The notes under the pieces are model-generated. The model had not been told where the DNA came from, ran no database searches, and saw only the letters and a program-made list of their open reading frames with translations. Below are positions 38,507 to 43,498 of a DNA stretch of 64,000 bases, one piece after another (the first letter of the stretch is position 1; each line of letters begins with the position of its first letter). Position numbers and translations under genes: made by a program. The DNA is from Thermodesulfobacteriota bacterium (lineage in GTDB: Bacteria > Desulfobacterota > Desulfarculia > JACQYL01): assembly GCA_963675595.2 (NCBI GenBank), contig CAXXLZ010000002.1:2496001-2560000 (forward strand), in the 5' to 3' direction.

Positions 38507-40582
38507 TCATGGTTCATTGGGCCATAGAGGACCTTCTTCCTGAGCCTGTTTCATAAGATCCAGAAACTGTGAAGGCTTCACCACCATTATCTTGGACTTA
38601 TCAAGCGCCTCATAAAACGCATTAAAAAGCCCCATAAGGTTATTATTATCAAAATCAGTGCCGCTTAGGTTTCTCACCCCATAAACAGCATAGAAATGAT
38701 GATTGAGATCATACGTATCCGTCAATAATTGACTAGCCAAAAACTGAAGCGTTTTTTCAAGGTCTGAGTAATTCTTCAATGTCGGATTGATAGTAATCAA
38801 AAATTGAGAAGCAGGCTTATCGTATATAAACTTACCAAAAATAGGTGGTATATTTTCATTGCTGCTGGGATGGTAAAAGATACCGTCAAGTTTGTCAATA
38901 ATATTGCCCAAATAGGTATAATTCGACCAGTCGTCCCGTTGAACATCATTACCAAATATCAATGCGGACTTGATTCCCGTACTCACAATAACGTCTGTCA
39001 TCGCATCGAGTTGATAAGCAAACTTCCAAGAGTTTTTATCGATTTCTCCCAGCGTATAACCGATGGTGGACGGTCCCAGCAAAAATTCATCGTTTTCCGT
39101 TGCATTAAGAATGTAGAAATTCCAGACATCCGGTTCCAGATAGTACATTGCCGGCGACATGGTCCATCCGACAGGAAATTTGCCCCTATAAGGACTTCCA
39201 TACCAGACCTTGCTATTCATGTTATTGGTCATAAGTTGAAGGTTATCTCCGTCTGACATAATGAACGTCATATAGGCTTTGGTTTTATCGTAAACAATAG
39301 ACGGATCGGTGTTTTTTGGTACTGGCAACGGTTTGCTGTTTGAGGAACTTAAAAGAGACAGATTCACGGACTGATCGGATGCAACAACAAAATTACCAGT
39401 TAAAGAGGCATGATACACGTAGTCATGCTCAGGCCAATACGAAGGCTTTACACCCCAACCATAAATAGGCAAGGAATAATCACCATTCAATATTGGCGTA
39501 AATCCAAAATAGTATGGAGCTTCATAAAATATCATTCCATTTAGCATGGTTGCATAGTCTCTTGGGCCACCGGCAAGAGTAGGAGTCAAGTTAACAATAA
39601 AGGTTTTGTTCAATTCACTATCATATTTGGTAATAAAATCATCGTACGAAGATATTGATAACACATCGCCTATCTCATTTAGGCCAAGCTCCTCTGCAAT
39701 AGTTATATCATTCTTCGGTAGAGGAATCGCTTTCTTTATTCCACAAAGGGTCACCGACATATTCAAGGTGATATCGAAGTCGTCATAAACAATATATCCT
39801 GATATATAATTCTCGAAATCCTTGACGATATCTTCAACCTGAGTCTTAGGATTAGACACAATTGAAAGAGGGGGGTCCTTCACTTCTGTTAAATAATTCT
39901 TTATTAATAAACTGGAAGTTCTTAACTCGTCGGTATTCTCCTCATCAGGAGGGTAATAATCATTAACTTGTGTTTTATAAAGATAAATTTGTGTACTGCT
40001 TTCTTTCGCTACGATTCCCTGGAGCGTCGTAAGAAGTACAAGGTCGGTATCGCTCATATTCTGAATATTCACAGGATACAACGTATCGACCGTAACAGGG
40101 CCGTTGATGAACGGGTCAAATCCCGCCGTCGGACCCTCTTGCACCGAAACCTGAACGAAATCCGATCCCAAATATGGCCATTCAAGGGTGCCGTCAGGCT
40201 TCTCTAAGGAAAAATAGAAGGTGTAGTCCCCTACCGGCAATGTCCCATCAAAGACCTGATAGTCTACGAGCTTGAACAATGGCGTCCTGGCACTCGGTTT
40301 GATTCCCCGCTCCCATCCATCCGGGTATACATAACTGAACCAGTCTCTCAAGGGTGAAAAGACAGCGTCGGCCGCAATCCACCAATCAGCATCTTGGTCC
40401 ACTTCTTCTCCGGGGTATACACTGACCGTGACGGAAACAGGAGTATCGGAAGATACAACAGCAGCGTCTTTGTCATTTGCCCTAATATCAACGAAAGGAC
40501 GTTCAACAGCGCATACCCGGAGCGAGGGATAAACTTGAAAGCAAAGCAGAAAACAGCAAACGGCAACCAAATATCTTTTCAT
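38507..40582 (-). CDS. Secreted GxGYxYP-family putative glycoside hydrolase with N-terminal Ig-like domain
   Basis: RBS GGAGG; signal peptide; TTLQGIVAK, RDYA, IYGWG, FIMSDGDN, RGKFPVGWTMSP, GPSTIGY; markedly AT-rich. Confidence 0.75.
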   Translation of the reverse strand: MKRYLVAVCCFLLCFQVYPSLRVCAVERPFVDIRANDKDAAVVSSDTPVSVTVSVYPGEEVDQDADWWIAADAVFSPLRDWFSYVYPDGWERGIKPSARTPLFKLVDYQVFDGTLPVGDYTFYFSLEKPDGTLEWPYLGSDFVQVSVQEGPTAGFDPFINGPVTVDTLYPVNIQNMSDTDLVLLTTLQGIVAKESSTQIYLYKTQVNDYYPPDEENTDELRTSSLLIKNYLTEVKDPPLSIVSNPKTQVEDIVKDFENYISGYIVYDDFDITLNMSVTLCGIKKAIPLPKNDITIAEELGLNEIGDVLSISSYDDFITKYDSELNKTFIVNLTPTLAGGPRDYATMLNGMIFYEAPYYFGFTPILNGDYSLPIYGWGVKPSYWPEHDYVYHASLTGNFVVASDQSVNLSLLSSSNSKPLPVPKNTDPSIVYDKTKAYMTFIMSDGDNLQLMTNNMNSKVWYGSPYRGKFPVGWTMSPAMYYLEPDVWNFYILNATENDEFLLGPSTIGYTLGEIDKNSWKFAYQLDAMTDVIVSTGIKSALIFGNDVQRDDWSNYTYLGNIIDKLDGIFYHPSSNENIPPIFGKFIYDKPASQFLITINPTLKNYSDLEKTLQFLASQLLTDTYDLNHHFYAVYGVRNLSGTDFDNNNLMGLFNAFYEALDKSKIMVVKPSQFLDLMKQAQEEGPLWPNEP

Positions 40583-40885: not shown

Positions 40886-41613
40886 TTGTGGTCAAGCTGG
40901 ATCAATACGGCTACGTTAGGACGGCACATCGGTCGTACGGCAAGGGGATCAGGGAGATCGCTCGAGAGACGGGGCACTCCGGGAACACGATTAAGAGAGC
41001 ATTGCGGGAGGAATACGGCGGTTACGGCGAGAGGGGACATCAGCCTTATCCTTCTTTGGGGCCGTTTCTCAAAACGATTGACGCTTGGCCGACGGAAGAC
41101 CGGGAGCGGCCTCGGAAGCAATGACATACGGCGAGACGAATTTACCGCCGGCTTAAGAAAGAAGATGGGTTCGAGGGCGGGGAGAGCACGGTAAGGCGTT
41201 ACGTGCGTGAAGCGCGAAGGCGGCTGGGCGTTGGTGAACCCCGGGTCTTTATTCCCCTTGAGCCCGATCTCGGTATGGAGGCCGAGGTGGATTGGGGCGG
41301 CTGCCACGCCGTCGTGGCCGGGGGGTGCGTGAAGCTCAAGCTGTTTTGCATGCGTTCCAAGGGCGGCGGCAAACCGTTTGTACGCTGTTTTCCGTGCGAA
41401 CGGCAACAGGCGCTGTTTGAAGGACACATGGAAGCCTTCGCCTTCCACGGAGGAGTCTTCCGACGGTTGATCTACGACAACCTGACCACCGCGGTGGAGA
41501 AGGTGTTCAAAGGCAAGAAACGCAAGATTCAGGAAAGCTTCGAGCGATTTCGGGCGTACTACGGCTTTGTGCCCCGATTCTGCAATCGCAGCCGGGCGCA
41601 TGAGAAGGGATAA
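40886..41613 (+). pseudogene. istA: IS21-family transposase (IstA) remnant
   Basis: GIREIARETGHSGNTIKR HTH; KQ*HTARRIY with TGA at 41122-41124 where Arg is expected; EAEVDWG, YDNLTTAV, HEKG, then truncated; no istB. Confidence 0.88.
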
Positions 41614-41761
41614 GCATGCTCTCGTGGGAGAAGCGTACGGAGTCATGAAGGGGCAAGCCAACTAGACTGAAACGTCAACTTGCGCCCTCGTTCCAACCGG
41701 CCAACACCTTCAAGCGAACCGGTGGTCGGAAAAACACCCCAAAATCCAAAAGGGAGCACTC

Positions 41762-43498
41762 ATGTCCGACAACACACCTCACCCATTTGTCCTGGAGTTG
41801 GCCGACGAAACCCGCAAAGGCAAGGTCAGCCGACGTGATTTCTTGAAATATGCCACGCTAATGGGCGTTTCATTAGGAGCGGCGGGGAGCCTGATCGGCG
41901 TCACTCCGGCCCAGGCGGCCGAGGCGGCGAACATGGACTGGGCCTCCCTGCGGAGGCAGAGCCCCTTCGAGATCAAAAACCTGCTCATTGCGGAGGCAAA
42001 AAAGACTGCGGAGAGCAAACCCGGCGGCGAATGGATCAATGCGGGGCGCGGCAATCCGAATTTTCTGAATACCACGGCCCGCAAAGCCCTTTCCCTGCTT
42101 ACCCTCTTCGCCGTAGAACAGGCCGAAACCGGTTCACATTTCAATGACGGCGGGTACCGGGTTTCTCAGGCAGGCATTGCGAAGAGATTCGACGCGTTCA
42201 TGGCCCGGCATGTTGAAGATCCCGGGGGCAAATGTTTGCATGACGCCATTCAGTATGCATGCACCGGTCTGGGCATGAATCCGGACGACGTGGTCTTTCA
42301 GCTCACAGACGGTATCCAGGGCGACTTCTATCCGGATCCTCCGCGAATTTTTCCGGTAACAGAGGCGATCTTGAACAGATATCTGGATCGAGTGGTCTTC
42401 TCGGGACATCCGCCCGAGGGCAAGTTTCACCTGTTCGCCACGGAAGGCGCTACGGCGGCAATGATCTATATTTTCAACTCGTTGCGTGAGAATATGGTGC
42501 TCAACCCCGGTGACAAGGTGGCCATCGTAACTCCCATTTTCTCGCCCTATCTGGAGCTGCCCGTGCTCGCCGACTACGGCCTCGAGACCGTATACATCAA
42601 AGGCGACGAGTCCATGGGCTGGCAGATTCCGGACGAAGAGACGGCCAAACTCAAAGACCCAAAAATCAAAGCGCTTTACATGGTGAATCCCACCAACCCC
42701 ACTTCCGTGTCCCTCAACTCGGACACCACACACAGCATGGCCTCCACTATCCGCCGGTATAATCCGGACATGGTCATCATCTCCGATACGGTCTACGCGA
42801 GCTTTGTGGACAAATTCAATACCTTCGGTCGGGAGCTGCCCAGGAACATCCTCGGTGTCTATTCGTTTTCCAAGTACTTCGGAGTAACCGGCTGGCGGCT
42901 CGGAGTGGTGATGGTCCACGAGGATTGCGTCATAGACAAGATCATTGCCAGGCTGCCCAAGCGTGATCAGGCGAAGCTCGACCTGCGCTATCGGCTGACC
43001 TCCACGCATCCCGAAACCATCAGATTCTATCAACGTCTGGAAATGGATTCGCGCCAGGTTGCTCTGGCTCATACCGGAGGGCTTTCCGGTCCGCAGCAGA
43101 CGGCCATGAGCCTGTTCGCCCTTTTCGAATTGCTGGACGAGACTTTTGCCTACAAGGCGTCCATCATGGGCATCCTGAAAAGGCGCTGGACCGCCCTGTT
43201 CAAGGCTTTGGACATACCTGAGCCCACGGGAGACAACCTGACACGCTATTATGCGCTCATCGACCTGGGACGCCTGGCCGAAGCAAAGCACGGCAAGGCA
43301 TTTGCGGCAAAGATGATGAAGAGCGAGCCCCTGGATTTTGTATTCCGGCTGGCCCAAAAAGAGGCCACGGTGTGTCTGCCCGGTAAGGGCTTTGCGGGCC
43401 CGGACTGGTCGCTACGCGTGGCCCTCGCCAATATATCCGAGGAGGATTGCACCGCCATTGGCAACAATATCCTGAAGGTGCTGGAAAGCTACAAGTGA
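41762..43498 (+). CDS. L-aspartate 4-decarboxylase / aspartate aminotransferase (PLP fold I) with N-terminal Tat signal
   Basis: SPFEIKN, NAGRGNPN, FATEG, PIFSPYLE, VNPTNP, PLP lysine in VYSFSKYFGVTGWRLG, VALAHTGGLS; signal SRRDFLK...AQA-A. Confidence 0.9.
   Translation: MSDNTPHPFVLELADETRKGKVSRRDFLKYATLMGVSLGAAGSLIGVTPAQAAEAANMDWASLRRQSPFEIKNLLIAEAKKTAESKPGGEWINAGRGNPNFLNTTARKALSLLTLFAVEQAETGSHFNDGGYRVSQAGIAKRFDAFMARHVEDPGGKCLHDAIQYACTGLGMNPDDVVFQLTDGIQGDFYPDPPRIFPVTEAILNRYLDRVVFSGHPPEGKFHLFATEGATAAMIYIFNSLRENMVLNPGDKVAIVTPIFSPYLELPVLADYGLETVYIKGDESMGWQIPDEETAKLKDPKIKALYMVNPTNPTSVSLNSDTTHSMASTIRRYNPDMVIISDTVYASFVDKFNTFGRELPRNILGVYSFSKYFGVTGWRLGVVMVHEDCVIDKIIARLPKRDQAKLDLRYRLTSTHPETIRFYQRLEMDSRQVALAHTGGLSGPQQTAMSLFALFELLDETFAYKASIMGILKRRWTALFKALDIPEPTGDNLTRYYALIDLGRLAEAKHGKAFAAKMMKSEPLDFVFRLAQKEATVCLPGKGFAGPDWSLRVALANISEEDCTAIGNNILKVLESYK

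Follow-up and report, generated by a model that had tools for sequence, protein, structure and literature searches.

Aspartate 4-decarboxylase (AspD/AsdA) is regarded as a cytoplasmic enzyme, and its best-known role, the generation of proton-motive force together with the antiporter AspT, depends on that location. In the AspD–AspT exchange system of Tetragenococcus halophilus a cytoplasmic decarboxylase is coupled to the AspT antiporter, and the enzymes of Pseudomonas dacunhae and Alcaligenes faecalis (3fdd, 2zy2–2zy5) are likewise cytoplasmic and are dodecamers according to the titles of their PDB entries. Here, a gene for an enzyme of this family, aspD, is described in a Thermodesulfobacteriota bacterium (GenBank assembly GCA_963675595.2, contig CAXXLZ010000002.1, positions 2,496,001 to 2,560,000 of the forward strand; this whole stretch of 64,000 nucleotides is referred to as the window). 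The window protein appears to belong to a distinct AspD/AsdA subfamily that carries a twin-arginine translocation (Tat) signal, and it probably works outside the cytoplasm.

Among enzymes that depend on pyridoxal 5′-phosphate (PLP), export by the Tat pathway has a precedent. A 2026 review (PMC13673990) counts PLP among the cofactors that are inserted before Tat transport, with PvdN and PtaA as the examples cited. Both are periplasmic PLP enzymes of Pseudomonas with twin-arginine signals, as is predicted here for the window protein. The two enzymes belong to other families and act on pyoverdine precursors, their homology to the window protein is limited to the general PLP fold, and the match between the leader of the window protein and the PvdN model is faint (11.5 bits, E = 0.082). 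A literature search whose coverage left out most subscription journals returned nothing that ties aspartate 4-decarboxylase to Tat, to a signal peptide or to the periplasm, and none of the matches listed joined aspartate 4-decarboxylase with Desulfovibrio, Sulfurovum or the term “Tat signal”. The precedent of PvdN and PtaA thus means that Tat export of a PLP enzyme is already known in kind, while the AspD instance is new to the literature found.

Two elements had been recognized in the initial annotation of the gene, a twin-arginine signal and a complete AspD-type enzyme with its PLP lysine, and the analysis supports both. The TIGR01409 model (TAT_signal_seq) matches the first 63 amino acids alone with 27.6 bits (cut-off 16.7), two Pfam signal models (PF10518 and PF10399, see below) stay under their cut-offs, and the NF006755 model (bifunctional aspartate transaminase/aspartate 4-decarboxylase) matches residues 59–578 with 653.1 bits (cut-off 321), covering profile positions 4–521 of 530. 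A second family model, TIGR03801, scores 563.5 bits (cut-off 435.1), and Pfam reports the general aminotransferase class I/II domain only. The PDB matches to 2zy2 (E = 3.6e-125) and 3fdd (E = 9.8e-124) start at residue 58 of the window protein and residue 3 of the chain, so that an enzyme of full length is preceded by 57 extra N-terminal residues with a clean boundary; the Pseudomonas and Alcaligenes enzymes have no signal peptide and begin at the equivalent of window residues 56–58. An AlphaFold2 model of the 578-residue protein has a mean predicted local distance difference test (pLDDT) score of 87.8, and Foldseek aligned it with 2zy3, 2zy4, and 3fdd over 486–525 columns (E ~1e-41, TM-score 0.87–0.90 normalized to the target).

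The leader is conserved as protein sequence across a large set of homologs. A word-seeded search identified 5404 proteins at E ≤ 0.001 among 8000 scored candidates, and most of the best 120 of these are 575–617 amino acids long and cover 97–100% of the query. Their N-termini follow a common pattern (HPF..E.AEET..G..SRRDFF/LKYA...G.S..AAG.L.GL). A total of 152 near-full-length proteins (at least 480 amino acids, containing the GRGNP motif) were classified, and 85 of these were assigned to the Tat type after three corrections by hand, with 47–89% identity to the window protein. The arginine pair is near-invariant in this survey: R25 is present in all 85 proteins and R24 in 83, the remaining two carrying lysine. 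F27 (84/85), G20 (81/85), A14 (77/85), and H7 (63/85) are conserved as well. In the window protein, residues S23 to K29 match the Tat consensus S/T-R-R-x-F-L-K; the string quoted as the leader in the initial annotation corresponds to residues 7–52. The median number of residues ahead of the arginine pair is 22.5 (84 leaders), and 83 of the 84 leaders contain a small-x-small motif within the c-region. Judged from the sequence, the hydrophobicity of the h-region is typical of Tat signals: the mean Kyte–Doolittle value of the Gly/Ser-rich core (Y30–G46) is 1.31, close to the mean of 1.34 in the Tat-type clade described below and under that of relatives with signals of the general secretory (Sec) type, which are more hydrophobic (2.27–3.21 over windows of 15 amino acids). 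Cleavage by signal peptidase is predicted after A50-Q51-A52.

The enzyme domain shares family, fold, PLP lysine and cofactor and carboxylate residues with the Pseudomonas and Alcaligenes enzymes. The Schiff-base lysine K371 is invariant in two sets of Tat-type proteins (42/42 and 85/85). D342, Y345, N312, R379, R552, and R96 are each present in 85/85 Tat-type proteins and in 45–46 of 46 cytoplasmic relatives, and K72 is conserved in 85/85 Tat-type proteins; K371 and K72 are near-invariant in the relatives as well. In the solved enzymes, the equivalents of R96 and K72 are R37 and K17. By analogy with aminotransferase structures, we take D342, Y345, N312, and R379 to be cofactor contacts and R552 to be the arginine that binds the alpha-carboxylate. 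Only seven positions (E66, T354, W476, L493, R495, A554, and C563) distinguish the Tat type from its leaderless relatives. None of the seven is known to be catalytic, and a change of substrate is therefore not suggested by them.

Taken together, it is likely that the aspD product is exported by the Tat pathway, cleaved after the A-Q-A motif and active in the periplasm, with L-aspartate or 3-sulfino-L-alanine as its substrate. For the window enzyme we infer the export itself, the place of cleavage, the state of assembly, the substrate and the role in the cell as follows. The 578-residue precursor would fold and bind PLP in the cytoplasm, probably as at least a dimer, as the active sites of fold-type I enzymes require. 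The S-R-R-D-F-L-K motif would be recognized by TatBC, the folded holo-enzyme would cross the membrane via TatA, and signal peptidase would cut after A52 to release a soluble periplasmic enzyme of ~526 amino acids. This enzyme would strip the beta-substituent from a small L-amino acid to yield L-alanine; the likeliest substrate would be L-aspartate (giving alanine and CO2), with 3-sulfino-L-alanine (giving alanine and sulfite) as the alternative, and it would act without the AspT aspartate:alanine antiporter. The genome that contains the window encodes a complete Tat machinery, with TatC (233.2 bits, cut-off 132.7) and three TatA/E proteins (55.1–71 bits, cut-off 53.9), and it carries a single aspD gene.

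The initial annotation had also stated that AspT is missing, and a search of the whole genome agrees with it: no protein encoded in the 6.79 Mb exceeds the cut-off of the AspT model TIGR03802 (best match 21.3 bits, cut-off 546.95), and no transporter gene lies beside aspD in the window. The T. halophilus system contains the same type of decarboxylase but differs from the window’s genome in the presence of AspT. The TIGR03802 cut-off was likewise not exceeded in any of six other genomes with a Tat-type aspD (the Pseudodesulfovibrio metagenome-assembled genome [MAG] G447 and five further genomes). One of these six (G542) contains an AspT-family transporter that scores 458 bits against the cut-off of 546.95 and is located ~600 kb from aspD (G542:C9:1476335-1477990, locus L170).

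A phylogenetic analysis was conducted with FastTree on 112 proteins after the leaders had been trimmed, the Tat set had been thinned to 46 of 86 and the tree had been rooted at its midpoint; with this quick method the direction of gains and losses and the deep branches are not trustworthy. The Tat-type proteins group in a single clade (47 rows, Shimodaira–Hasegawa-like support of 100, stem length of 0.24), in which 44 rows are of the Tat type, one is a KR variant and two are gene calls truncated at the N-terminus. This strongly supported clade, together with the replacement of Arg487 by K542, sets the window protein apart from the Pseudomonas and Alcaligenes enzymes. In the sister clade (31 rows), 21 proteins have no leader, a subclade carries Sec-type signals and one protein has a different twin-arginine signal. 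The Sec-type subclade (P0093, P0098, P0107, P0109, P0111, P0113, and P0118), of which one member is named Syntrophales, shows cleavage motifs of the A-E-I type, and the different twin-arginine signal is found in a planctomycete protein (P0089). Within the Tat clade, the protein of a Desulfovibrio sp. (P0061; locus L145:9552-9785, minus strand) carries a lipobox (LLGMSGC) after the arginine motif and may therefore be a lipoprotein that is exported by Tat; just upstream of it, on the same strand, is a gene for a carbon-nitrogen hydrolase. The Sec-type and the different twin-arginine signals of the sister clade appear to have arisen separately, and these forms and the lipobox of P0061 would independently suggest a location outside the cytoplasm for members of the family. 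Export signals thus arose more than once in the AspD family, which is an argument for the existence of extracytoplasmic AspD-type enzymes.

The Tat-clade proteins that carry an organism name come from Maridesulfovibrio, Pseudodesulfovibrio, Desulfoplanes, Salidesulfovibrio, Desulfogranum, Sulfurovum (Sulfurovum sp. NBC37-1), and Allorhodopirellula; Desulfovibrionaceae and a planctomycete are thus among the carriers. Among the window’s genome and 40 relatives, an AspD of any type was found in 6 of 41 genomes at E ≤ 1e-50, and the match covers the leader in one genome besides the window’s own. A sample of the phylum contained an AspD of any type in 18 out of 401 genomes, three of which, including the window’s own, match from residue 7 or earlier. 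Within the family of G447, aspD was found in 17 of 301 genomes, with all matches starting at residue 11 or earlier. A scan of metagenome contigs classified 6 of 79 loci as Tat-type, all of them on short contigs, and three of these were used (L041, L043, and L045). A scan of genome contigs with one protein as the query, which reaches less far than an alignment would, returned a single locus. The patchy distribution and the remnant of an IS21-family transposase gene upstream of aspD are consistent with lateral spread.

The leader had further been proposed to resemble those of peptide-type ATP-binding cassette (ABC) binding proteins, and this likeness was found in one protein. A profile built from 15 AspD leaders matches an SBP_bac_5 protein encoded in the same genome with 38.2 bits (E = 1e-8, profile positions 5–42), and the match takes in the part ahead of the arginine pair (leader HPLMEELAHGLATGGITRREFLRYTALLG; G000:C2:3184159-3184272, minus strand, locus L032/L154). 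The mature SBP_bac_5 proteins are unrelated to AspD, and the similarity is confined to the long twin-arginine leader. A DctP-type binding protein gives a weaker match (22.3 bits) to a single leader sequence. The resemblance between the leaders is not general: when the profile was run against 81 genomes from the family to which G447 belongs, all of its hits at E ≤ 1e-5 were aspD genes, which occurred in 8 of the 81. A search with the leader alone against 5.8 billion sequences returned four proteins, all of them AspD; its E-values are too strict for 57 residues to be informative about other families. Signal capture, as suggested in the initial annotation, is not supported as a local event by these data, in which the leader is ancestral to the whole clade and only aspD genes were matched in the 81 genomes; capture in deep time is possible.

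The neighborhood of aspD was scanned at 23 Tat-type loci by comparing 123 flanking open reading frames with Pfam; the reading frames were picked by a crude greedy procedure and some of them may be spurious. No sulfite-related or organosulfur genes recur beside aspD at the 23 loci, and no siderophore genes linked to the window gene were seen in the scan. Genes for binding proteins of differing families are scattered among the loci. For the roles put forward in the initial annotation (acid buffering, supply of alanine or CO2, release of sulfite) the neighborhoods offer no consistent clue. At two of the 23 loci (L001:5178-9962 and L150:9928-14650) the surroundings of aspD include a gene for an amino-acid permease of the Trp_Tyr_perm family and one for an aspartase or class II fumarase (Lyase_1/FumaraseC_C), an arrangement that may hint at aspartate metabolism. 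At the first of these, in the Pseudodesulfovibrio MAG G447, a gene for a BipA/TypA GTPase is located between aspD and the permease and lyase genes.

Several observations weigh against Tat export of an active aspartate decarboxylase. With regard to the signal, the Pfam model PF10518 (TAT_signal) gives the leader 18.1 bits and thereby stays below its cut-off of 22.7, the c-region lacks a basic residue and is acidic in many homologs (PEIAEAA), and the n-region before the arginine pair is net acidic (three K/R vs. four D/E). AlphaFold2 predicts helices at residues 8–18, 24–33, 38–44, and 49–56 of the leader (model residues 1–56, window positions 41762–41930) with pLDDT values of 66, 87, 78, 76, 76, and 60 in consecutive blocks of ten residues (87 for residues 11–20); this is unusually high for a signal peptide, and the model could reflect contact with the enzyme and not a signal role only. 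Furthermore, no conserved neighbor, regulator or transporter was found across the 23 Tat-type loci, and among 13 sequencing runs listed the one recorded as RNA contained a fraction of 0.06 of the sampled words. With regard to the enzyme, the position mutated in the R487A variant is a lysine in the window protein. The column was fixed to K542 (codon 43385–43387) by comparing wild-type 2zy3 and 2zy4 with the R487A mutant 2zy5, and it is variable in all groups: the Tat type has E, A, K, or D at this position, and the cytoplasmic relatives have E, G, S, or D. With such wide variation outside the Pseudomonas/Alcaligenes group, Arg487 is no family-wide feature. The characterized enzymes are ~41% identical to the window protein over residues 58–574, and because of this level of identity and the variability at K542 the aspartate 4-decarboxylase activity of the window protein is assigned at the level of the family. 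Finally, characterized AspDs are dodecamers of ~700 kDa, seemingly too large for the Tat pathway, and a different assembly state or order of assembly would therefore be needed. AspD is also slowly inactivated by abortive transamination and needs 2-oxo acids for recovery, which may be scarce in the periplasm.

Three alternative explanations concern the leader itself. If translation started at Met58 (MDWASL...), the product would be an AspD of the usual cytoplasmic kind, and the leader would lie in untranslated DNA ahead of the start codon. Homology to the characterized enzymes does begin exactly at residue 58, and a GAGG sequence is located 8 nt upstream of ATG41933. However, the protein sequence encoded by the 57 codons before it is conserved across the 85 homologs down to 47% identity, with R25 and F27 (near-)invariant, whereas position 58 is a Met in just 7 of the 85 (P, I, K, E, or L in the others), and gene calls from several sources begin at the upstream Met. 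Since the leader is conserved as protein while Met58 is not, translation from the upstream Met, as the initial annotation had assumed, is supported, and the start at MDWASL is highly improbable and for practical purposes excluded. A leader that is used by Tat might instead stay uncleaved, or be replaced by a lipid anchor, and keep the enzyme tethered on the outside of the cytoplasmic membrane. The leader is closer to PF10399, the model of the uncleaved Rieske Tat signal (20.9 bits, cut-off 24), than to PF10518, the P0061 homolog has a lipobox, and in many homologs the c-region is acidic and the AxA motif not strict. The clean A-Q-A of the window protein, the small-x-small motif in nearly all leaders and the short Gly/Ser-rich h-region, which would make a weak membrane anchor, speak for a cleaved signal, and the tethered form is considered unlikely. 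The leader might also be vestigial or repurposed for chaperone binding or regulation, like the remnant signal of NarG, leaving the enzyme in the cytoplasm, which would fit the long conserved n-region with its confidently predicted helix (the pLDDT block of 87) and a genome with no other AspD to serve the cytoplasm. Remnant Tat signals, however, lose the conservation of the arginine pair, of the phenylalanine at +2 and of the hydrophobic core, all of which are strongly conserved here; relatives with a lipobox or Sec signals indicate real export in the AspD family, and a leader of the same long type is found on the periplasmic SBP_bac_5 protein of the same genome. A cytoplasmic enzyme with such a leader thus appears very unlikely.

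A fourth alternative leaves the location unchanged and concerns the role: the enzyme would be exported as proposed, but its true substrate would be 3-sulfino-L-alanine (cysteine sulfinate) or a related beta-substituted amino acid, and sulfite would be released into the periplasm of sulfur-cycling anaerobes. AspD is known to desulfinate cysteine sulfinate as a side activity, sulfate reducers and sulfur oxidizers make up most of the Tat-clade members that have a name, and the use of protons outside the membrane would make periplasmic decarboxylation of aspartate energetically unattractive. The absence of recurring sulfite or organosulfur genes from the 23 loci, the planctomycete members of the Tat clade and the permease and aspartase/fumarase-type lyase genes at two loci, which point to aspartate, argue in the other direction, and R96, the arginine for the distal carboxylate, would presumably be unable to tell a carboxylate from a sulfinate. 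The literature found on cysteine sulfinate was mammalian only. This substrate has a small but appreciable chance of being the true one, and L-aspartate is retained as the likeliest substrate of the exported enzyme. The broader proposal that extracytoplasmic AspD-type enzymes (the Tat clade and the separately arisen Sec and lipoprotein forms) constitute an unrecognized class that performs desulfination of cysteine sulfinate or organosulfur compounds in the periplasm is rather doubtful.

Within the window, aspD stands alone on its own strand, with the IS21 remnant on one side and a convergent gene for a metallo-beta-lactamase-fold hydrolase on the other (table 1). ATG41762 is the earliest start codon downstream of an in-frame stop codon, and a search around aspD for sigma-70-like promoters and for terminators gave none on the plus strand. 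The two pieces of the IS21 remnant match NF033546 with 29.5 bits (profile positions 4–66) and 115.1 bits (positions 101–228 of 294); both are under the whole-protein cut-off of 160, being fragments, and the end of the profile is missing. Further upstream (38507–40582, minus strand) is a gene for a putative glycoside hydrolase of the GxGYxYP family (691 amino acids, with a hydrophobic N-terminus); the G+C content of this stretch (0.39–0.48) is lower than that of its surroundings (0.55–0.60), and it may be a foreign insert.

Table 1. Features of the aspD locus, with positions counted from the first nucleotide of the window.
Feature	Position	Strand	Remarks
Precursor open reading frame	41762..43498	+	Single frame, 578 amino acids
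Shine–Dalgarno-like sequence AAGGGAG	41750..41756	+	5 nt 5′ of ATG41762
Signal n-region, residues 1–22 (MSDNTPHPFVLELADETRKGKV)	41762..41827	+	Long, conserved HPF..E.A.ET..G
Twin-arginine motif S23-R-R-D-F-L-K29	41828..41848	+	TIGR01409 match, conservation in homologs
h-region Y30–V47 and c-region T48–A52	41849..41917	+	Putative signal-peptidase site after A50-Q51-A52
Predicted mature enzyme, residues 53–578, fold-type I PLP	41918..43495	+	AspD-family hidden Markov models, PDB matches
Codon of K371, PLP Schiff-base lysine in SFSKYFG	42872..42874	+	Aligned with the lysine of 2zy2 and 3fdd
Stop codon TGA	43496..43498	+	Read from the sequence
IS21-family transposase remnant	40888..41613	+	Broken, two reading frames; ends 149 nt upstream of aspD

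A subfamily with a conserved export signal that is found in several phyla, and in whose tested genomes no AspT exceeds the cut-off, changes the picture of AspD as a solely cytoplasmic enzyme. It implies that decarboxylation or desulfination of amino acids would take place in the periplasm, where the AspT mechanism cannot operate. If this is true, a large PLP enzyme would be added to the short list of PLP proteins that are carried by the Tat pathway, and with relatives that form dodecamers of ~700 kDa the question of its oligomeric state is raised, together with those of how the oligomer is handled during transport, how the cofactor is kept as PLP outside the cell and what benefit the cell derives from the reaction. 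Should desulfination be the true role, the reaction would release sulfite and alanine in the periplasm, with sulfite serving as a respiratory substrate, and would provide a new entry point for organosulfur compounds into the anaerobic sulfur cycle. The Tat-type AspD proteins are named in genome annotations exactly as the cytoplasmic ones, and metabolic reconstructions of sulfate reducers therefore probably misplace the compartment of the reaction.

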